Shown here: positions 5,470-55,785 of the stretch, in pieces
Numbering within the stretch: the first letter of the stretch is position 1
Layout of the letters: each line of letters begins with the position of its first letter
Assembly (NCBI GenBank): GCA_964016885.1
Contig: OZ024753.1
Span: forward strand, 39,246,001 to 39,310,000
DNA: 64,000 bases
Reading direction: 5' to 3'
Source of the DNA: Eledone cirrhosa
Lineage: Eukaryota
Position numbers and translations under genes: made by a program
Notes under the pieces: model-generated
Database searches by the model: none
Told to the model about the DNA's origin: nothing
Seen by the model: the letters and a program-made list of their open reading frames with translations, nothing else

Positions 5470-5512
<43 letters not shown>

Positions 5513-5573
5513 AACAAGATGGCGTAGGACAGAACAAAGAAGGAGAGGCACAAAACAATGAAAAGAATCCCCA

Positions 5574-5616
5574 GTCAATGAAGAGGTCACACAATGTGTG
5601 ACGAAAGAACTTTGAC
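5574..5616 (+). ncRNA. Hammerhead-like motif (C3>A), same family as 21881, within an element at ~5510-5826
   Basis: GUCA-AUGAAGA-G-GUCACAC-AAU-GUGUGAC-GAAA-GAACUU-UGAC. Downstream ATGACCCTCCC..AG.ATAACAATAT is shared with 22099-22125 and, inverted, with 9520-9552. Confidence 0.6.
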
Positions 5617-5822
5617 AATATATGAACAACCGTCTGGTTGTGGAACCAACCAACCAGCTGGAAATTTATAAATTTTTAATTTATAATTTAATTTCTAATA
5701 AATTGGAGTGAAAGCAACTGGTGCGTGTGTTTCTTATTGGCAACATGACCCTCCCAAAGTATAACAATATCGGTTTCATCACACGTTTTCAGGTAAAGAA
5801 TCTTGCTAAACAAATTCAGAAA

Positions 5823-5870
<48 letters not shown>

Positions 5871-5948: not shown

Positions 5949-5985
5949 AATATATATATATGTATATATAAATATATATATATAA

Positions 5986-6068
5986 CGAAGGGGGTGTGGT
6001 AAGGAACCATGTGGACCTTAACGCACCAGAGTACTCAATACTTAGAGTAGTAGAGTGGGTAATAGGAA
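5986..6068 (-). mobile_element. Tail fragment of the 21420-type element
   Basis: Reverse complement TTCCTATTACCCACTCTACTACTCTAAGTATTGAGTACTCTGGTGCG matches 21529-21580. Confidence 0.75.
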
Positions 6069-6330
6069 ACATTTTCATGTATATATATATAAAGAAAATT
6101 AGAGTTTTTAAAAAAAAACACACAAACAAACACAAAGAAAAAGCGAGATGTCCAACATGGGTGAAATTATAAGGCAAATGAAATTGAAAATGCTACTGGA
6201 GACAAACCACAAGAGGAACACAAACCCTCCATCTAAATTTTACTCTTGAAAAGCATAAGAACTGTGAAACTGGAAAAAGTAGATAAATAAATATTCTTAA
6301 AAGACTCCAGTTGCATTTTCAATTTCTTTT

Positions 6331-9474: not shown

Positions 9475-9523
<49 letters not shown>

Positions 9524-9575
9524 TACTTGGGAGGGTCATGTTGCCAATAAGAATCTTGCTAAACAAATTCAGAAA

Positions 9576-9675
<100 letters not shown>

Positions 9676-19998: not shown

Positions 19999-20907
19999 AG
20001 AGAAAAACAATTTTCTTTGATAAATTGACATATTGAAGGTTTGTCATATCACAGGTTTTAGTCAACTTTGTAATATTTTTCAATCTATGAAATATCGTGT
20101 AGTTGACAGTTTTGCTATTTAACACATTCATATTAAAATTAAAGCGGGGTTACAGAGTTCATTAACAATTGCTGGCATTTCTCAGACACTGATGGCTAAA
20201 AAGCAGCACAATAATTTGCTCATTTCAATTTTAGTTACACGGAAACAACAGCTAATGTAACATATAATAATATAGCTGCGGGCAAAAAGTTAATTAGTTA
20301 GAATCAGCCATATTACTGGAAGCACCGTTTTACATCTTTATAATTGTATTTGTTTGTTGTATCTGTCATAATATGTTACCTTGGGAAATGTGTAGTGAAG
20401 CTTTCATCACAGCTTCTCCTTTTCTAAAGGCCAATCGTTATTAACTTTCTATTCGGTTGGTGGCGAAAAGGCGCCAGTCATGGTTAGGGCATCCGGTTTA
20501 TGATCGTAGATTGGTGTGTTCGATTCCCGCCGGTACATCGTGTTTTGAAACCATACACATTATTACATCTTCCTCAAGTGCATTCAGCTGACAAAAATAT
20601 GAGATGTATCTGATATGTAATTCAAAAGACCAGCCAGCCTTGTCACACACCATGTCACGCCAATGCATATATATATATATATATATAGTAATAATAATAA
20701 ATGTGAAAACTAAAATCCAAAGAGGGCTGGATAAGGATAAATATATCAGTTTCAGAAGATCCCGTTAAGAGTGAAAGCAGCGATTCTTTGCATAAACTTT
20801 AATCTGTTATTTTAATAAATATATATATATATATATATTATGAAGAGAGAAGAAACATTTAGATATAATTAGTAATAAAATGTATCATACCCAAACTGTT
20901 CCTAAAT

Positions 20908-20995: not shown

Positions 20996-21387
20996 TACCT
21001 CATTTTACTGGTCTCAAGAACGCGTCTACACGACGTGAGAAAGAATCCCAAAAGGCGGAGGGGGAGATAGTCACGCGATATAACGGTCGAGAAACAGAGC
21101 TAAGCCTCTTATAACCACGAAGAAAATACCACGGAGGCGGAGGGGGTATTCATATCGATATATATATATATATATATATAGTATTTGTAAATCGAACTTT
21201 AGCTGCAGTACAGCAAGTAGTACAATTGGATTTGTTTTGAGGCAATCACAGAACACTCAATGGATCTAACGTTAAAGACAAACATTTAGTCCAGAGTTAA
21301 ACACCGTAGTTATAAAATGTGACACCAACTGAACAAACCGAAGACACAAACTATACATACCACAAAATAACGATATATACAAAAAGG

Positions 21388-21419
<32 letters not shown>

Positions 21420-21424
<5 letters not shown>

Positions 21425-21609
21425 AACGAGTAGGACCCCGACGGCTGAGCTCAAGCCGTTTCGACGGCTAATTCTGGACTGAATTAGCCGTCGAAACGGC
21501 TTGAACTCAGCCGTCGGGGTCCTACTCGTTCCTATTACCCACTCTACTACCCTAAGTATTGAGTACTTTGGTGTGTTATGGTCCACCTTGTGCCTTACAA
21601 CATTTCATT

Positions 21610-21614
<5 letters not shown>
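21420..21614 (+). mobile_element. (TA)n-embedded element with a ~115-bp palindrome containing the 3' half of a hammerhead and a TATTGAGTAC tail
   Basis: Arms of ~55 bp with one mismatch around loop TGGACT. The tail matches the reverse complement of 6011-6068. Confidence 0.75.
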
Positions 21615-21643
<29 letters not shown>

Positions 21644-21648
<5 letters not shown>

Positions 21649-21818
21649 ATAGAAGGAAGGAGCTTCTACAGGACTAGTACTAGTACTAGGACTAGTACTA
21701 GTACTAGGACTAGTACTAGTCCTGCAAAAGCTCCTTCTATACAATAAATATATTCTACTCTGCCATGTATTGAGTACCTTACTTACTGTGGTTATCCCCG
21801 ACTCAACCCGGGACCTAA

Positions 21819-21820
<2 letters not shown>
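21644..21820 (+). mobile_element. (TA)n-embedded element with a ~100-bp palindrome centred on (ACTAGT)-type repeats and a TATTGAGTAC tail
   Basis: ATTGTATAGAAGG...CCTTCTATACAAT inverted arms. The tail is homologous to 46500-46563. Confidence 0.72.
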
Positions 21821-21880
<60 letters not shown>

Positions 21881-21925
21881 CACCACTGACGATGTTGCAG
21901 ATGTGCAACGAAAGAACTTTGATAG
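21881..21925 (+). ncRNA. Hammerhead-like motif (intact core, eroded stem I) at the start of a ~240-bp (TA)n-embedded element (21880-22122)
   Basis: CUGACGA-U-GUUGCA-GAUG-UGCAAC-GAAA-GAACUU-UGAUAG. Confidence 0.62.
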
Positions 21926-22117
21926 ACTATATTTATGTGTTTGTGTCTATATTGTGTCTGTATTTTTGACCGTTGGTCAGTCAATGGCAACATTGAAGAC
22001 CGAATAAATTTTATTAACCGATATAAAAACACAGAAGCGAAAACCAACCAAACAGTGAGTGTGTTCTGTTATTAATTCTGGCAATATTATTACACAAATA
22101 TGACCCTCCCCAAGAAT

Positions 22118-22315
<198 letters not shown>

Positions 22316-28592: not shown

Positions 28593-28952
28593 AAAACTCT
28601 GATATAACACCTGCAACCCTGATGGTATCCAATGATGTTGACTTGTTCTTCTTTTTGGTAAATATCATCTTGGTTAAGAGAGTGGGACTGGCTTTGTGCA
28701 GTGCCTTTGCTCACTATAAAAGCTTCACGGCACAGGCATTGCTTTATATCTGGAGATCTCTCTGTACTTGTCGTCACATGGTACCATGGGCCCAGCACTA
28801 TGTATCAATAATTGTCACAAGTGTAGTGTTTGTACCAGAGTTTTCAAGTCGCTGGCTGCACTAAAAAGTCACACTTGTTCAGCGTATCGGTAGGGGTTCT
28901 CTTACATGGATATAAAGTAGTGGCCGTACTCGAAAACGAGTTGGCAGCCACC
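28593..28952 (+). mobile_element. 5'-truncated copy of the 35018-35611 retroposon
   Basis: Same 3' terminus GTGGCCGT-ACTCG-AAAA-CGAGT-TGGCAGCCACC; flanked by (ATGT)n-like sequence. Confidence 0.8.
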
Positions 28953-28974
28953 ATGCAAGTATGTATGTGTGTAA

Positions 28975-29114
28975 GGTACTTTATTTTATCCGCCATGTAA
29001 GGCTGAAAGGCAAAGCTAACCTAGGACGGATTTGAACTCAAAATGTATAAGACGGTAATTATATGCCGCAAAGCATGTTGTCCGAATCTCTACCGACACT
29101 GTCAATCTTCCACC
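28975..29114 (-). mobile_element. Diverged SINE family A copy
   Basis: GGTACTTTATTTTATC...GAAAGGCAAAG...GATTTGAACTCA...CTCTACCGACACTG. Confidence 0.75.
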
Positions 29115-34695: not shown

Positions 34696-35017
34696 TGTAT
34701 ATATACATATATACATACATATACATATATATACATATATATATATATATACATACATACATACATACATATATATATATAGTAATAATAATAAATTTGA
34801 AGACTAAAATCCGAAGAACACTCGATAAGGATAAATATATATCAAATATATAAGACCCGTAGAGCAAATATTTTAATAAATATATATATATATATATATA
34901 CACATGCATACAAAAACACTCGTATATGTATATATATAAACATATGTGTACACATATACATACATGCATTAGTACATGCATACATATATACTCACATACA
35001 TATATACTTATGTACAT

Positions 35018-35611
35018 GGTGGCTGCCAACTCGTTTTGGAGTACGGCCACTACTTTATATCCATGTAGGAGAACTCCTACCGATGCGCTGAACGAGTGTG
35101 ACTTTTTAGTCCAGCCAGCGACTTGAAAACTCTGGTACAAACACTACACTTGTGACAATTATTGACACATAGTGCTGGGCCCATGGTACCTTGTGACGAC
35201 AAGTGCAGAGAGATCTCCAGATATAAAGCAATGCCTGTGCCGTGAAGCTTTTATAGTGAGCAAAGGCACTGCACAAAGCCAGTCCCACGCACTTAACCAA
35301 GATGATATTTACCAAAAAGAAGAACAAGTCAACATCATTGGATACCATCAGAGTTGCAGGTGTTATATCAGAGTTTTCCTCCTCCTAGAATTCTGCCTTG
35401 GCAAAGGCTAAGGGGTCATCTCTGCCGGTGATTTTGGATGGCCATTGACTCTTAAGAGCTCCTTTTCCCTTTGACAGGTTTTGTTTTTAGTCCTGCAGGA
35501 TGTCCAAAGTCACCCTCCTCACCAAGAAACCTTGGTGGGGTTGTCAGTTTAGTCGCCAACGACCCGACCATGGGACAGGTTGGACTGCAATACATGTTAC
35601 CAGTAGCACCA
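35018..35611 (-). mobile_element. Non-autonomous ~594-bp retroposon (resembles an RTE-type 5'UTR + 3' end) with a 12-bp TSD
   Basis: ACTTATGTACAT at 35006-35017 and 35612-35623. Its 3' ~360 bp are nearly identical, inverted, to 28593-28952. Confidence 0.8.
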
Positions 35612-35937: not shown

Positions 35938-36242
35938 TTGCTCTACGGTTCTTATATATTTCATATATATTTATCCTAATCGAGCCTTCTTTGGATTTTA
36001 GTCTTCCATTTTATTATTATTATTATTATTATTGACGAAAGTGGATGTACGTTTTTTGAAGCTCCGTGAGTAAGCAATTTTTGAGGATTAATTGTAGAGA
36101 ATTGTTTATTTTTTGTACCGCTGAAGCATTATAAGACATTAATTTGTATCCTGTGAAGGAATAACTCATAATATTTGGGCCTTTTGGCCCAAATATTTGA
36201 ACTTTATTTTGGAAAAAAAAAAAATTTTTTTCTCAAAAAAAC

Positions 36243-38152
36243 ATGGCGGAGCCACGCCCCCTAGAGGCGGGTCTGCTGTCGTACAACGGCGACTTGAGCG
36301 TTGAGAGGAGAGGTGAGGCGAGGAGCGCCACCAGCACGAATGTGAGCAGCGACAGTGCCAGCACCAACGGGCCGAGCGGCGCGGAAGGTGGTAACAGCGA
36401 CAACACCAACACCAACAAGCCGAACAGCGCAGAAGGTGGTAATAGCGAGAGCACCAACAAAACGAACAGCACAGAGAGTAATAGTAGCGACAGCAGCAGC
36501 ACCAACAAGGCCAACAGCACAGAAGGTAACCACGACACAGGGGAGAACAACAACAGCAATAGCAGCAGCAACACCAACAAGAACAACAACAGTGACAACA
36601 CCAACAAGAACACTTTCGCTGCTGTGGCAGCGGCTAAAAGGAGACCATGCTACAGCATCGACTTAACCAACAGAGAGGAAAAGTTGGCCCAGGCCTGGAA
36701 AATCATAAATCAAGAGCAGACCTGGGCAAACTTAACTGTCCCGGCAGAAGCCATTGAGGCAGTGGAAAAAAGAACGGTGCATTTCAGATGCATCTCAGTA
36801 GAGACAAAGAGGGCAGCGATAATCGCCCAAGCTGACATAGAAGCCGCACTGAAATACATCAGAGAGGACACAGACTTCATAGAGAGGGGCAGGCAATACG
36901 GCACCGTTTCGGTGCTGTTCAAGTCTGAAGCCCTCGCTGTGAAGCATTCAATGACCCCTTGCAAAACCAGCAAGGTCATAATGTACCCCTCCCACATGGG
37001 AAAACGAATAGCACGTGTGCGCATTCCCAGGATTCCACCAGGACTTGATATGTGGTGGCTCCTGGGTTGCGTAATCGTGGAAGGAACGGATACAGTCCCG
37101 GTAGAGGCAACGAGAACTGCCAGGGACGACTGGTCCGGGGTTGATCTGGAGATACTGCTCCAAATCAGACCCGAAAACGTAAAAACAATCCCGGACCACA
37201 TCCGCCTCCAAAACGGGAGGGTGTTGCATATAATGACTGAGGGCAAAAGGCCGCATTGTTTCCTTTGTGGGGAAACGACACACTTGCGAGCCTTCTGCCC
37301 TCAACTGCCGAAAAGCGCAAGGGGTCGAAAGATTCCACTGCTGGCGACGCCGGGACAAGGACCACCAGCAACACCGTCAACAATGGAACCACCAAAATTG
37401 CACACCCAGGGGGGAAACGAGGAAAGCTCTCCCATTCCCCCTCCCCCCCAAAATACACACACGAACAAGAACATAAACACTCACTCAGACACAAACACGC
37501 TCACAGCCACAGACCCCTCATCCTCCAGCAGTGAAGATGAGGGAAAACCAAAGTCCCCCAAAATACAAAAAACAAAACACAAAAAAAAAGAAATCCACAA
37601 AGCACAAACACCCCCACAAAAAAAAATACACACACCACCCACACAAACATTTTCCCCACAGCATCACCAACACAACCACCAAAATCCCCCAAACGCAAAC
37701 AAGCTAAACAGACACAAGAACAAATAGACACACAAACATCAGAAACTACAGACACCCCACCCACAACAAACGCAGACACAATAGAAACAACACTAACAAA
37801 GCTATCACCACCACAATCACACGAACAAATAAAACCCGAGCAACAAAACATTAAAAACTTCGTGCTTGCCAGAAGGGCCAACAAGGAATTGATGGCCCAT
37901 GTAGCACGAAGCACAAACATCGAAAAAGACGGGGAAACATTTGAAGCGAGCACATTTCGCGTACCAGATAATTTGCTTCTGATGCGAATGTCGCTCGCTT
38001 CATACAAAGAAATTCGAAAGAGCTTTCCTCGGGATGTGGGAACCCCGAACGTAAAACCCACGTCAAGACTATTAAAGGGGTTCCCAAAAGAAACCCCACA
38101 AACCATGGAGGTCGAACCACCCGACCTTCACAAGACCCCGGAAGGTAAGTAA
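36243..38152 (+). CDS. LINE ORF1p (gag-like, CCHC zinc knuckle), split by a -1 frameshift between 37541 and 37727
   Basis: 36243-37727 has an S/N/T-rich repeated N-terminus, a TFAAVAA motif and the knuckle CFLCGETTHLRAFC. The -1 frame is open from 37541 to TAA at 38152 (PKSPKRKQAKQ...NFVLARRANKELM...), ending 29 nt before the ORF2 ATG. Confidence 0.85.
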
Positions 38153-38181
38153 ACCTTTCCTCTCCCATTCATCCTGCCAGC

Positions 38182-41100
38182 ATGGCCATAAGAGTAGGAA
38201 GTTTAAATGTTCGTGGCCTGGGGTCGCCCTGGAAGCAAGGTCACTTGCTCAACGACCTCAGGTCACTAGGAATGGATGTAATTGCCATCAGCGAGACCAG
38301 AATTTCCGACACACGCGCACTGGCGCCGATTTTCGACGATTATCAGATCTTTGCATCTGTTAGTCGGCCGGGAATGGGAGGTGGAGTGGCTGTGCTGTTT
38401 AGGAAATGTCTGGATCTCGAGGTAAGGTCAATCTTCCGGGATCCTGACGGAAAGTTGGTGGTCCTGGACGTGAGCAATAGCGAAGGTGGTGCCTTTAGAC
38501 TGGTGGCCGTCTACGCCCCTACTGGGGCCGGTCGGCCGGACTTCTTTAGGCGCCTGGAAAACTTTCTGCTTACGTCTCGCCCTTTACTGTTAATAGGGGA
38601 TTGGAATGGCATCTTAGAAGCACGCTGGGATTGTGTGGGAGTATCTGATAGGAGCGGGGGGTGCAAAAGCCTCAAGTACCTGATCAGCCAGTTTCAACTG
38701 TCTGACAGGTACCGACTAGATTTCCCTAATGCGCCAGTATGGACCTGGACCAATCGCATAGGGTCATCTAGATCGTACATAGATAGGATTTTCATTAGGA
38801 AAAGAGATAGAAATAGTGTAGGATGTCCACATTTTAAAACGGTTGCCTATTCAGATCACAAGCTTGTGATCTGTATGGTCGACCTAGATAAGACACGTAG
38901 GTTAGGACCTAGCTACTGGAAGCTAAACATGTCGTTTCCGGCACGTAAAGCTTACAGGGACCGGGTCAACAACTTAGTTAAGCAAAAGTTGACAGGGGGG
39001 GTTGTCAACAACAGGTGGTGGGGGGCACTCAAAAGAGAGATTAGAGCAACCTCGATAGGATTTAGCAAAGAAGTAGCAATAGAGAAAAATAGAAAGGAGG
39101 AGGGGCTGATAGCTAAGTTAGACGAGGCTATTTGTAGTGGCATTGCAACAGACGTGCTAGCGGCGAGAATGGCACTAGACCATTTCTTCAATGCGAAACA
39201 CGAAGGTTGCATTGTCAGAGCTAAGGCGCGTGCTCTGAGGAACGAGGGAACCAAAGCTGCCCGATGGGCTCGCTTTGCAGAGACGCAGCGTGGAAATAAA
39301 ACCACAATTCGGTCTTTGACGGATCGAGATGGACACGAACTGAGCGATTCCAAGCAGATGTGTGAGGCCTTTCGCCAGCACTTTGCTCGATTGTTCGGGA
39401 GGATGGGTGAGTCGGAGACGGCGGCGGACTTCAGTCCCTACCTCGACGGCTTGCCACGCCTCTCGACGGCCGACGCTGAGCGCTGCGAAGAGCCGATAAC
39501 ATCAGCCGAAATTCAGGACGCCCTTGTCGGCTGCTCGAGTCGCAAGTCACCCGGTTTGGATGGTCTGCCCTACGAGCTTTACGTAAATATGCCAGACTTG
39601 TTCTCCGATCTCCTCGAAGCGCTCTACTGCAACTGGCAGCAGAACGGGAGCATTCCCAGTTCTGTGAGCCGTGGCGTAGTGACGCTGATAAGGAAAGACG
39701 AGAACAAGAGGGACACACTAGATAATTTCAGGCCCATAACCCTGCTCAACACAGAGTTTAAGATTTTGGCCAAGGTGTTAGCGAAAAGGTTGGCGCTTGT
39801 CGTCAAAGATTTGGTTGGGGAGGCGCAAACTTGCGCAATCCCGACCAGGTCCATACACGACAACCTCCACCTCATGCGATACATCATAGAGAGGGTTGGG
39901 TGCAAACCTGGCTTCGGTGGGGCTCTGATCAATTTAGATCAATCGAAAGCATTCGATAGGGTCGACCATCGGTACTTGGAGGCTGTCCTCGAGGCGGCTG
40001 GCTTCGGCCCCGTCTTCAGAAGCTGGATCGCTGCAATGTACAGCGGCATCCGCTCGGTGGTCAAAGTTAATGGCCACCTCTCGGAACCGTTTCAGATCTC
40101 TCGATCGGTCCGTCAAGGGTGCCCTCTCTCCTCACTTCTGTACGTATTGACTCTTGAGCCTCTACTGCGGAAGCTGGAGTTGTTGCAGGGCATCCCGCTC
40201 GAACCGGGACGTAGAAAGGCTGCGTCCGCTTATGCGGACGACATCACCGTGATGGTGTCGGACACCTCGGAAATCGAGGTGATCCGCACCCATTTGGAGG
40301 AATATGAAAGGTTGACGGGAGCAAAACTTAACCCGGAAAAGTCGGTGGGCTTGCAGCTCGGCACCTGGAGAGGCAAGTCCATGCCGTCCAACAGCGTCGT
40401 TGGGCGCTGGACAGACGGACCGGTAAAGTTGCTCGGGGTTTGGTTCGGACCAGACCTCCAGGTGGATAAGAATTGGGACGAGGTGACGAGCAGGATAGCC
40501 AACCTCACCCAGAAATGGGCTGAGAGAAAGCTATCACTGAAAGGGCGGGCGGAGGTGGCGAACGCGTACATCGCGTCCGTCATCTACTACCGCCTGACCG
40601 TCGTGCCTTGCCCCCGTCCACGCCTCGCCAATTTGGAACGGCTCCTTTTCAAATTTTTGTGGAGGGGACGGGTCCCGTTGGTGAGGCGGTCCATCTGCTG
40701 CCAGCACCCTCTTCGTGGAGGGCTGGGCATGCCGTGGCTAATGATGCGCAGACATGCGCTGAGGCTGCGACATCTCCAGATATTTTGCCTAAACGGTGAA
40801 CAGGTGTGGTCGCCGTTTGTTAGACGGGCCTTTCCGCAGCTCATCTCTTTGACTGAGCTGCAGTCCTGGGTCAAGAAGAGACCGAGACTGGGCGACTGGC
40901 ATCTGGAATGTTGCCAGGCGCTCACTGCACTCTGCAAGGTGGGCAATGCGGTCAGTGGAACTTCCACTCAAGATTTCTATAGAGGATTAGTGGAGGGCAA
41001 GTGCGATGACGTACTAGGAGAGGCTCTGGGCGTCAACGAAGTAGAACTGACCAGTATGTTCCGGAGGACTTTCGAGCCGGGGACGATGGATAACTTCCAG

Positions 41101-41601
41101 AAATCCCTCGCTTGGCAGTGCTACCGGGGGGCGCTGCCGGTTCGGGATAAACTCTACAGGCACGGAAGTGCTGTCAGACGAACCTGCCCGAGATGCGCGC
41201 AGAGCGACGAAACCGTTCTGCACGCACTCGTCCAGTGTCCGTGCATTGCTGACTTGTGGGGTTATGTCGAACAGCTATTGTCGCGTGTAGAACGGATCCG
41301 GCTATCGTCCGAGTCCATAGTGAAGATTGACCCGCCGCCTTCTTTTGGTCAGGAAGGGCAGGCAATTTTCCTCTGCCTGGTGGCAGTAGCGAAAGAGGTT
41401 GCATGGTGGACCAGGTTGAAAGGACTGAAGACAGACACTTTTCTCTTCGGCCAATCCCTCATCAACTTCTTCAAGTTTCACTTGGAAAGGAAGGTGAGGG
41501 TGGAGAGAGAAGTGCTGCCCCCCAGTACATTTACTGAAAGGTGGGTGAATGTGGCGAGAATGGCCCGCGTGAGTGGGCCTACTCTGATCATGCGCCTGTA
41601 G
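38182..41601 (+). CDS. LINE ORF2p: apurinic-like endonuclease + reverse transcriptase + C-terminal zinc finger, 1139 aa, uninterrupted
   Basis: APE motifs [32 protein letters not shown]; linker YWKLN; RT motifs [48 protein letters not shown]; C-terminal CPRC-x8-H-x4-C. These fit the Tx1/L1 group. Confidence 0.97.
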
Positions 41602-41879
41602 GCTGGTGAATTCGAGAAGGAGAGGGGTGCCCTTCCCGGGTGCCCTAGGAGCGTCGGGTGGCTCAGGACTGGTGGGGTGCTTGAGTCAACCCTGGGTGGT
41701 GATCCCTCTTATTGGGGAACTTTCATTGTTGTATTTTTATTGTTATTTTGTTTTTGTTTTTTTGTTATTTATACTTACTCGATCTCTATGTAAACCCCCA
41801 CTGTCCCTGTCTATTGTGTTGTCCCCTATATGTCGGCCCTTGTGGCCAATAAATGAAATCATTATTATTATTACTATTA

Positions 41880-46461: not shown

Positions 46462-46561
46462 ATATAGAAATGACTTCTACAGGACTATATTAAATATTTA
46501 TACTCTGCTATGTATTGAGTACCTTACTTACTGTGTTCAACCCCGATTGAACCCTGGATAA

Positions 46562-46564
<3 letters not shown>
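46462..46564 (+). mobile_element. 21644-type element with an inverted 5' piece
   Basis: TATAGAAATGACTTCTACAGGACTA + TACTCTGCTATGTATTGAGTACCTTACTTACTGTG, flanked by (TA)n. Confidence 0.7.
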
Positions 46565-51946: not shown

Positions 51947-52028
<82 letters not shown>

Positions 52029-52947
52029 TATATTACGGCTCTGTCCTCAGACATTGAGCTAACCTCATACTGCCTGCTGGATAAGTGGAGTGTTATACAC
52101 CCCTGATCCTTTCTCTAGCATACTATATATATATATATATACATGTAAGTTTACATTACCGTACAAAAAGAAATTTGTCCATACAAAGTATATTGTAGAT
52201 TTTTCCATAAAAAATATTTCAGTGTTTTGTAGTTATAGTCATCATTTCCTTAAGGGGTCGATAAAATAAAGTACCAGTAATGCACTGGGTAATTGCTGGC
52301 CTTGTGCCTAAATTAGAAACAATTATCTAATTATTTATTGCACTATAACAGCTTTTTACTACGAATAGTATTACAAAGTTTACATTGTTCTAGTTTTGAA
52401 TATGTTCTACACGTGTTACTGTGTGTCGCTTACGTCCTTTCTAAGAAAACCTATGCAACTGGTTATATCCTTGTTGCTTATGTTGTCATGTCTAGAGACA
52501 CAAATCTGGTTTGAATTTGAATGTAATGAAGTGCTTTTCGTTAGTTGACGCCTAGTGTGTTTAGTTTTGGTTTGTACGTAGTCTCAAACATACTGGACCT
52601 CAGAAAGTACCTCGTAATGTTAAGCTATTAAATAGTTGAAGCACAACCACAAGGATATGGTCCGAACGTGGAAGAGCCCAACTCCCACTGTCATCGCCTC
52701 CAACTCTCTCGCCCTCCCCATCTCTCTGTATGGTGTACATAGTAAAGACATAGTTTCTCTAAAATCAGTAAAAAATATGTTTAAATTAGAACAATAATTT
52801 ACAAGACTCATATTTAACTGGGTGATGTCTAAAAATATCTGACTGATGAAATGACAAGTCAGTCGAGCATATCGGTAGCCTCTCCACAGCCCCGGCGGAC
52901 AGAATGTAGAAGGCGTTTCCCCGTAGTTACAGAATACATTTCGTTAA

Positions 52948-53214: not shown

Positions 53215-53465
53215 GCTCATCAGGTCAATGCTTATCCCGGCTTCCGTGGTGTTTAGCGATTGAGAATACAAGACTCTTCCTGGACAGGAAGCCTTTTCAC
53301 TATACGGTTAAAGCTCCATCTATTGCTGGGGTTCATGTTCAGCTGAGTATACTGGAGCAACGTGAAATGAAAAGTTTTGGTCAAGAACACAACACACAAC
53401 CAAGTCCAGTAACCGATCTCACAAAATTATGATCGTAAGTCCAACACATGTAGCACTAGTCCACA
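53215..53465 (-). mobile_element. Second, older tRNA-SINE family (B); diverged relatives at ~8600-8690 (-), ~20455-20660 (+), ~31540-31650 (+), ~57000-57200 (-)
   Basis: Shared CAGCTGAGT..ACTGGAGCAACGTGAAAT...CAAGAACACAAC...ATCGTAAGTCCAACAC motifs; tRNA-like head with GGTTCGAT-type B-box in the better-preserved relatives. Confidence 0.6.
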
Positions 53466-54265: not shown

Positions 54266-55098
54266 TATTAACTCTAACTACTTTAACGCGGTGGATTGGC
54301 AGTATCGGTAGAGGGTCGGACGCCATGCTTTCCAGCATAGTTACGTCCCTTTACGATATGAGTTCAAATCCCGCGGAGGCTGACTTTGCCTTTCATCCTT
54401 ACGGGGTCGATAAAATAAAGTACCAGTAATGCACTGGGTATTTGCTGGCCTTGTGCCTAAAGTAGAAACAATTATTAACTCTAGCTACTTTAACGCGGTG
54501 GATTGGCAGTATCGGTAGAGTGTCGGACGCCATGCTTTCCAGCATAGTTACGTCCCTTTACGATATGAGTTCAAATCCCGCGGAGGCTGACTTTGCCTTT
54601 CATCCTTACGGGGTCGATAAAATAAAGTACCAGTAATGCACTGGGTATTTGCTGGCCTTGTGCCTAAAGTAGAAACAATTATTAACTCTAGCTACTTTAA
54701 CGCGGTGGATTGGCAGTATCGGTAGAGTGTCGGACGCCATGCTTTCCAGCATAGTTACGTCCCTTTACGATATGAGTTCAAATCCCGCGGAGGCTGACTT
54801 TGCCTTTCATCCTTACGGGGTCGATAAAATAAAGTACCAGTAATGCACTGGGTATTTGCTGGCCTTGTGCCTAAAGTAGAAACAATTATTAACTCTAGCT
54901 ACTTTAACGCGGTGGATTGGCAGTATCGGTAGAGGGTCGGACGCCATGCTTTCCAGCATAGTTACGTCCCTTTACGATATGAGTTCAAATCCCGCCGAGG
55001 CTGACTTTGCCTTTCATCCTTACGGGGTCGATAAAATAAAGTACCAGTAATGCACTGGGTATTTGCTGGCCTTGTGCCTAAACTAGAAACAATTATTA
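54266..55098 (+). repeat. Tandem array of four SINE family A copies, 207-bp period
   Basis: GCGGTGGATTGG starts at 54288, 54495, 54702 and 54909; each is preceded by TTAACTCTA(A/G)CTACTTTAAC. Confidence 0.95.
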
Positions 55099-55186
55099 TC
55101 TTTCGAAATAAAGATAGAGTCGAAAACCAACTGGTGCGTTTCTTTTTGACCCTCCTAAAGTATGAACATATATAATATATAGTATA

Positions 55187-55224
<38 letters not shown>

Positions 55225-55459
55225 TATATATATAGTGAGAGATAGATAGAGAAAGAGAGAGAAAGAGAGAGAGTGAGAGATGTAAAATCCCGTCAGAGAT
55301 CTCTATAATATTTCTATACCTAGTCTGCATCTACCCATGCATTGAGTACTCCCATGACTAGTGGTCTCATCGGTCTCAGCACCACACACACACACACACT
55401 CTCTCTCTCTCTCTCTCTCTCTGTTTCTCTGGCTCCCTCTCTCTCTCTCTCTCCCCCTC

Positions 55460-55712: not shown

Positions 55713-55785
55713 CATATATATATATACCTGTCGAAACGGCCAGAGCTCAGCCGTCGGGGTCCTGACTCATATATATATATCTATA

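Follow-up and report, generated by a model that had tools for sequence, protein, structure and literature searches.

Three short inserts, termed A, B and C, in the window (the whole 64,000-nucleotide stretch analysed here) share a conserved tail hairpin with Penelope-like elements (PLEs) of the Hydra clade and are likely short leftovers of insertion. Their PLE identity appears highly probable to us. We also favour, with moderate confidence, a reading in which such stumps arise when the PLE reverse transcriptase (RT) primes on both cut strands and copies the first 30-140 nt of the RNA, the two cDNAs being joined head to head. The point of fold-back is likely the start of the element RNA and not a hammerhead helix.

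Examination of A confirmed a near-perfect palindrome at 21420-21535, 116 nt in length, with 55-bp arms, one mismatch (21450/21505) and a 6-nt loop (21475-21480). Its fold has a z-score of -21, none of 200 shuffles folding equally well. It was the sole palindrome of the 64 kb to pass a scan for arms of at least 20 with at most 2 mismatches, at least 33% GC and no microsatellite character; B, with its imperfect arms, did not pass. The right arm reads TAGCCGT-C-GAAA-CGGCT-loop-AGCCG-T-C-GGGGTCCT, which is the 3' half of a hammerhead at the homologous place, laid out as a sequence-only reading of the DNA had claimed, with the axis at the tip of the putative stem II. This layout fits the Hydra hammerhead (HHR) table in the supplement of PMC8557442. 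A 27-nt motif of this arm occurs three times in the window at up to 3 mismatches (the third at 55733), against no occurrence in 100 shuffles. Element A as a whole lies at 21423-21614 between (TA)n runs and continues for 78 nt beyond the palindrome on one side only. The RNA predicted for it from these letters would lack half of the hammerhead core. A search with Rfam gave no hammerhead match in 21423-21819, and only hairpin and miRNA noise in the window and in this interval, so the hammerhead label stands on motif and homology and not on a family model. Since eight relatives likewise gave only a weak Hammerhead_3 match (E 0.48), Rfam does not model these ribozymes. To the left of A, an island at about 21284-21300 (TTTAGTCCAGAGTTA) resembles the A-family 5' boundary in 14 of 15 letters, which may be chance.

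Element B (about 21645-21819) has imperfect arms, between which lie six ACTAGT hexamers and about 2.8 repeats of an 18-bp unit (fold z-score -9); its tail is one-sided and similar to that of A. The sequence-only reading took B to pivot on a reiterated stem III plus GUC; the reiteration is present, but ACTAGT may equally be a head-to-head join ACT|AGT. The inverted piece of C (46467-46486) is the reverse complement of AGTCC...TTCTAT and thus ends, as had been claimed, at the same GTC plus one A. C itself is not a palindrome, its forward part being the tail alone and its arms non-overlapping. A and B belong to different families, of which the tail motif is the sole shared part. Flanking (TA)n, expected of Hydra-clade insertions, was found on A, B, C, A2 and G, and an inverted 5'-truncated copy beside the pseudo-LTR (pLTR), the insertion unit of EN+ PLEs, in A, B and C.

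Table 1. Coordinates of the PLE-related features in the window
Feature	Positions	Strand	Basis
Element A, inverted short arm	21423..21480	-	From initiation site 1 (21535-equivalent) to family 5' boundary (A of AGTCCA)
Element A, forward arm: type I hammerhead 3' half, up to site 1	21481..21535	+	Sequence
A, stem II 3' arm; GAAA	21485-21491; 21493-21496	+	Sequence
A, helix III with self-complementary loop; GUC	21496-21501/21509-21514; 21513-21515	+	Sequence
A, stem I 3' arm	21516-21523	+	Sequence
Element A, tail (78 nt) with bulged hairpin 21541-21564	21536..21614	+	Site 2 end into (TA)n
Element B, inverted short arm ending GGACT	21645..21675	-	Sequence
Element B, reiterated junction block, ACTAGT hexamers, 18-bp unit	21676..21717	.	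Sequence
Element B, forward arm from AGTCC plus tail, bulged hairpin 21757-21775	21718..21819	+	Model E 0.012
Element C (family B), inverted arm 46467-46486 joined to tail only	46467..46563	+	Model E 0.21
A2, second family-A copy, essentially tail only, in (TA)n	5985..6079	-	89% over 74 nt; model E 2.6e-4
Third family-A piece, hammerhead 3' half only, in (TA)n	55728..55768	+	27-nt motif match
G, tail-only stump, G-C version of bulged hairpin, in (TA)n	52025..52123	+	Model E 0.11
F, diverged relative with tail motif, between GA and CA repeats	55290..55385	+	Model: not recovered at E<=5

The Penelope-like origin, already proposed in the sequence-only reading, is supported by the tail hairpin, which A, B and C share with Hydra-clade elements. 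Such PLEs insert into (TA)n and have canonical hammerheads, and one of them is known from an octopus (PMC8557442). The ends of Hydra-2_Amil and Hydra-2_Ajap given there read GCTC-stem-loop-TW-GAGCAC, and their counterpart in A, B and C is ACTC-stem-loop-TT-GAGTAC. The octopus element, Hydra-1_Obim, is (TA)n-targeting and its loop II also opens with TAGTTC; its consensus and that of Hydra-1_Amil end without the full hairpin. Among 46 distinct copies, the outer pair of the hairpin is G-C in 39 and A-T in 5, and the third inner pair is C-G in 26, G-C in 12 and T-A in 3. Paired letters fill 92.9% of cells, with 25 double changes against 10.2 in shuffled data, a test inflated by relatedness. A covariance model from 30 relatives ranked A, A2, B, G and C at the top of the window (E 8e-5 for A, up to 0.21), in a search that is partly circular, the relatives having been fetched by a pattern demanding CTGANGA and TATTGAGYACY. 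The first of two 3' ends (site 1) lies at -22 from the TATTGAG of the hairpin in A and at -23 in B. In the mainly open-access literature searched, we found no paper on the bulged tail hairpin, the fixed site-1 distance or a pile-up of stump ends at the predicted start.

Metagenome contigs scanned for the hammerhead core combined with TATTGAGYACY yielded 118 loci from 11 of 64 parts. The 5' arm of the hairpin, which the pattern does not demand, is present in 78 of the 118, or 75 after removal of three chance matches. These 75 loci combine an intact hammerhead core with the bulged hairpin of A, and two of them carry full Hydra-type PLE open reading frames (ORFs); an automated helix test was passed by 60 of 151 pattern matches, viral loci included. 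One locus, L013, encodes a 705-aa ORF that stops some 92 nt short of the hammerhead, and another, L019, a 735-aa ORF after a pLTR. A Hydra-clade PLE is expected to possess one ORF combining RT with GIY-YIG at the C-terminus. Both ORFs contain RWK, DKT, YRDD and CxCx5C, motifs described for Hydra (PMC8557442). Ten further loci match pieces of a Hydra-type ORF, and 2,045 representatives match the L013/L019-type ORFs at E<=1e-30; Pfam and PDB sequence searches with the two ORFs gave no match. L016 matches the Hydra-2_Amil 3' end by eye. The linkage to a PLE RT/GIY-YIG ORF looked for after the sequence-only reading holds by motif for the relatives L013 and L019; for A and B, no autonomous ORF or ORF remnant linked to either family was found within the window. 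Reading frames open across the tails, compared with the N-termini of 150 Hydra-like proteins, showed no convincing similarity. A second TTGAG(C/T)ACT occurs just before the Hydra-type ORF ATG in L019 (280-300) and L013 (370-390), and the Hydra-1_Ajap 5' end likewise shows two such motifs (PMC8557442). Viral matches (32 with the combined pattern and 35 with the tail pattern) were rejected for want of hammerhead context, the recurrent one lying inside a phage-type coding region. Exact A-family patterns had no match in the viral, metagenome and prokaryote collections.

Alignment of four sequence runs to reference 21463-21614 at 80% likeness revealed that A is a member of a high-copy family. The matching records comprised 11,670 contigs in X1, 347 contigs in X4, 21,323 RAD reads in X22 and 3 contigs from another organism in X5; the loose-end, joint and variant counts given below refer to the rows listed, beyond which stand 337 loose-end and 97 variant rows, and letters of records running past 21463 are not displayed under this reference. 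Family A has two 3' ends into TA, which is the tail signature of PLEs, with a one-sided tail between two presumed RT starts. Site 1, at 21535, was seen in 3,439 reads of X22 and 63 contigs of X1, and site 2, at 21613 and 78 nt from site 1, in 5,154 reads among the rows listed. A sister subfamily diverges at 21602 of the reference and has its end a few nt beyond (1,588 reads listed).

At the 5' side, the listed loose ends before 21481 end in TTTAGTCCA (101, 7, 2,248 and 2 records in X1, X4, X22 and X5), the reverse complement of which is the loop of A. In a second subfamily, those before 21485 end in TTAGTTCGGATC (90, 8 and 1,438 records listed), and the two positions correspond to the same homologous A. 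Upstream of this boundary the consensus turns mixed and rich in AT; both subfamilies thus begin at the same A, with or without an inverted arm. Since AGTCCA is, in reverse complement, the loop of element A, the short arm of the element ends exactly at the boundary A. In families A and B, this A sits in an initiator-like word, YY-A-GTCC/GTTC. Depth at 21463-21468 was about 2% (X1) and 1% (X4) of that at 21505-21510; a drop at 21482 in X22, probably a restriction cut, was left out of the counts.

Most family-A copies are not palindromic, and junction and arm lengths vary between copies. In all nine opposite-strand joints listed, one side falls within 21481-21488 and its partner within 21512-21575 (in five, within 21528-21532, close to site 1), so that, as in C, the arms do not overlap. 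Six of the eight listed rows with letters between the arms leave from 21480. Among palindromic copies, the three junction variants listed carry +A, +CA or +CCA behind 21480 (12, 8 and 9 contigs, 29 in all) and duplicate loop bases in both orientations. Two rows, of one contig each, hint at an additional C where the inverted arm ends, which would be a mark of the RNA cap. CUGANGA was seen in no copy of family A or B among the rows listed, and the X22 loose-end consensus shows at its expected place only a noisy CTAATAC as a hint. The sequence-only reading had the CUGANGA half replaced by the inverted copy; the half is indeed missing in A, but it is also missing from nearly all family-A copies, inverted or not.

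In the relatives, junctions were scored in 39 copies of the three best-sampled families, 22 loci of thinly sampled families being unscored. Loci L027, L065 and L114 (chance matches), L103, L105 and L111 (duplicates) and L005, L014, L022, L037 and L043 (contig edge) were left out before counting, and five rows re-read by eye are long copies of sister subfamilies. Thirty of the 39 copies are truncated; all start between 0 and -13 of CTGA (23 of them between -6 and -13) and none between -14 and -33. An inverted arm is present in 20 of the 30, its outer end lying 18-24 nt before TATTGAG in 18 of the 20. The inner end falls at -6 to -12, in the leader before stem I, in 11 of the 20 and never further out; the other nine end inside the hammerhead (core 3, stem I 2, stem II 2, loop II 1, helix III 1). 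Arms ending in the 5' arms of stem I or II continue with leader and not with the sequence predicted from the helix, and L033 is the only one of the 20 to continue as predicted, in a clear snap-back at helix III. Because the fetch pattern demands CTGANGA, stem II snap-backs deleting CUGANGA are invisible in this sample, a bias from which the family-A data are free.

Repeated restarts or reiterated junctions comparable to B occur in 9 of the 30 truncated relatives, so the repeats of B are a common by-product. Some inserts (L025, L097) repeat the final 10-25 nt of the antisense arm and stop at the identical 5' end; L016 and L069 can be read as a bottom strand that ran off at -12 and folded back over two base pairs. 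In long copies there is an Inr-like TCATT whose A lies at -10 to -12 of CTGA, and 8 of 13 such copies, from three families, have a TATA-like box 25-32 nt before this A; several other Hydra-type families in the sample lack such motifs. The motifs follow the Inr and TATA consensus, and AT-rich DNA yields TATA by chance. In L083 (315-514) the arrangement is tail-to-tail, with the inverted copy downstream, which is the rarer orientation.

The mechanism we propose begins with the arrangement observed in each family: two 3' ends with the conserved bulged hairpin between them, and a short arm starting about 22 nt before TATTGAG. By analogy with in vitro work on another PLE, the GIY-YIG/RT protein would bind the hairpin region, both AT-rich target strands would be nicked, and RT would start internally at two sites. 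The 5' ends pile up at one position per family. Read from its motifs, this position would be the transcription start (for the relatives directly ahead of stem I, for A at the stem II tip, for B at AGTCC), and the cDNAs would run off the RNA end there. A transcript from the 5' pLTR would present the binding hairpin within its first 150 nt, so that both cDNAs would be short, and at least one would likely reach the RNA end. Microhomology of 0-7 nt might then link the free cDNA ends, either when one jumps to the other cDNA or when the run-off end folds back, often following aborted restarts that would leave repeats such as those of B. Hammerhead helices would be mostly bystanders. For perfect palindromes, fold-back at the run-off end may occur (loops of 3-6 nt; L016, L069), at a place that the RNA end would set; in fully palindromic copies, cis fold-back and trans joining are indistinguishable.

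In a more far-reaching and rather unlikely version, the (TA)n target would double as a TATA box and drive new transcription of the stump, beginning about 25-30 nt within it. Family A would on this view be a non-autonomous element of the second generation, devoid of a ribozyme, with its RNA starting at the stem II tip. The hairpin, kept alike in coral-type elements and in this genome, would be an RT landing pad that sets the first start at 22 nt, and the ACTAGT repeats of B would come from an RT, sister to telomerase, that copies the 5' end of the RNA over and over in the manner of telomerase. A putative splice-acceptor or upstream-ribozyme origin of the A 5' boundary, suggested by the letters TTTAG alone, was also considered.

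The sequence-only reading instead had the nascent cDNA snap back on helices of the hammerhead, namely stem II for A and a palindromic stem III for B, and prime itself, which we now regard as quite improbable. The same 5' boundary occurs in inverted and non-inverted copies of family A, including those flanked directly by TA-rich DNA; the non-overlapping arms of C and of all listed opposite-strand joints need two primed cDNAs; the +A, +CA and +CCA variants carry loop bases in both orientations; and the helix-paired product is absent among the family-A rows listed. The claim that helices set the breakpoint finds little in the relatives either, given their leader ends, in a sample blind to CUGANGA-deleting products. 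What speaks for snap-back is the axis of A at the stem II tip, the Hydra-1_Obim-like GGCTTAGTTCGGATC before TAGCC in the loose ends of the second subfamily, the GTC of B lying about as far from site 1 as the GUC of A, and L033, in which the cDNA crosses helix III, folds back, extends a few nt and then jumps. The 3-6 nt loops of A-family palindromes, with L016 and L069, would also suit a single site-2 cDNA that runs off the RNA end, folds back and copies itself, an endonuclease resolving the hairpin at site 1; self-priming with such resolution was suggested in PMC3846280 and PMC8557442, and the making of tails by the endonuclease is likewise a published hypothesis. This too seems doubtful: the short top arm of A reaches furthest 5', arms do not overlap in C, D2, L004, L021, L077 and those joints that reach 21528-21575, some copies end at site 1 only, and two internal starts were measured in vitro (PMC11167929).

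Polymerase theta-type end-joining gives templated insertions. Host end-joining could accordingly have made the junctions and repeats later, on arms laid down by the PLE RT; the short microhomologies and the nested templated inserts of 9 of the 30 truncated relatives and of B are consistent with it, while the re-copies to the same 5' end in L025 and L097 fit repeated passes over the RNA end. We consider this unlikely, and it is compatible with the joining of two primed cDNAs that we prefer. A fixed hairpin or terminal inverted repeat (TIR) of a DNA transposon or MITE, which the sequence-only reading had named as its alternative, is largely refuted, as is an assembly or amplification artefact, and either is almost certainly wrong. 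Taken alone, A resembles a hairpin element in a TA target. The variable junctions and arm lengths and the mostly non-palindromic copies do not fit a fixed TIR, and the tail is homologous to the pLTRs of ORF-bearing PLEs; against an artefact, the arms of A differ by a private mutation (G at 21505 in 97% of X1 depth), and the axis is also covered in three runs besides X1.

In L1 twin priming, a second primer starts internally and leaves an inverted, non-overlapping 5' piece. C resembles this product, but here the second start is a fixed, hairpin-measured site and full overlap is possible. The closest known systems are the Hydra-clade PLEs (Craig et al. 2021, PMC8557442), which share with A, B and C the (TA)n targets, the inverted 5'-truncated copy and the one-arm tail, and, as regards its 3' half, with A the type I hammerhead with a real helix III near the 3' end; Hydra-2_Amil and Hydra-2_Ajap have the same bulged hairpin at their 3' ends. 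By contrast, helix III of A is longer, with a self-complementary loop, CUGANGA is missing in nearly all A copies, the tail is about 78 nt as against 30-40, and the outer hairpin pair is A-T instead of G-C. A and B also differ from Hydra-1_Obim as listed in that source, and no ORF is linked to them in the window. Penelopes of Adineta vaga (Arkhipova et al. 2013, PMC3846280) have similar head-to-head arms, a junction palindrome and an optional tail; their pLTRs carry TATA and Inr-like motifs, and self-priming at palindromic junctions has already been proposed for them. Here, in contrast, inserts measure 100-190 nt in all, the junctions map to a constant 5' boundary, and arms without overlap indicate that two cDNAs were primed on a sense template.

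For Poseidon PAc (Frangieh et al. 2024, PMC11167929), in vitro work describes two internal RT starts bracketing the tail, cutting and extension of both strands, an AT-rich target and dispensable HHR cleavage. The two starts around the tail and the AT-rich target correspond to what we infer for A, B and C, whereas the element belongs to another clade and its initiation stem-loop, rich in AC, is located inside the start of the ORF. Non-LTR retrozymes (bioRxiv 10.64898/2026.07.22.740005) are likewise non-autonomous, pLTR-derived and hammerhead-bearing. They form tandem arrays with complete type I ribozymes, whereas the stumps are dispersed, the window copies being single or inverted without CUGANGA, with half a ribozyme in A. 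Lone and opposite-strand hammerheads and a palindromic helix III are described in PMC4209133, and an internal promoter with Inr in PMC2377424.

Inverted pLTRs, junction palindromes and self-priming are thus already known, and the present elements are new members with testable new details; PMC8557442 counts the way in which PLEs build their inverted ends and their tails among the tasks still ahead. One handle for tests is the covarying tail hairpin, which in distant animals keeps a constant spacing to the first RT start. The predicted RNA 5' end would explain many lone or back-to-back hammerheads in genomes, and reiterated junctions may be a record of repeats synthesised by the enzyme most closely related to telomerase. 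With an intact ORF and their own pLTR, L013 and L019 are usable for in vitro work.

Other repeats were observed in the window, the repeats of which suggest a host genome of octopus type. A second PLE-like family in (TA)n, family D, has a different tail (21880-22121, 5509-5824, 9520-9577 and about 55120-55170). Its copy directly after B has a complete-looking core (CTGACGA, 6-bp stem II, GAAA) 6 nt past the TA run, and that at 9520-9577 is an inverted short arm joined to the tail only, as in C. Family E is a short repeat in TA-rich runs with no clear hammerhead (20688-20818, 34782-34879, 35938-36006), and at 53223, on the minus strand, an isolated hammerhead-like core, CTGATGAG...CGAAAC, lies in another repeat. 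A LINE at 36201-41870 is apparently intact, with a 508-aa ORF1 and a 1150-aa ORF2 (endonuclease, RVT_1, zf-RVT), and ends in a TAA-rich run adjoining (TA)n; as a source of A or B it (36201-41601) was rejected, being no PLE (RVT_1, endonuclease) and having no link to either. Finally, an abundant SINE-like repeat of about 190-210 nt has about 20 dispersed copies and also forms, at 54266-55101, a 207-bp tandem array of four units, and a 392-nt inverted repeat (28593-28984 / 34986-35377) is 94% complementary over a distance of 6 kb.
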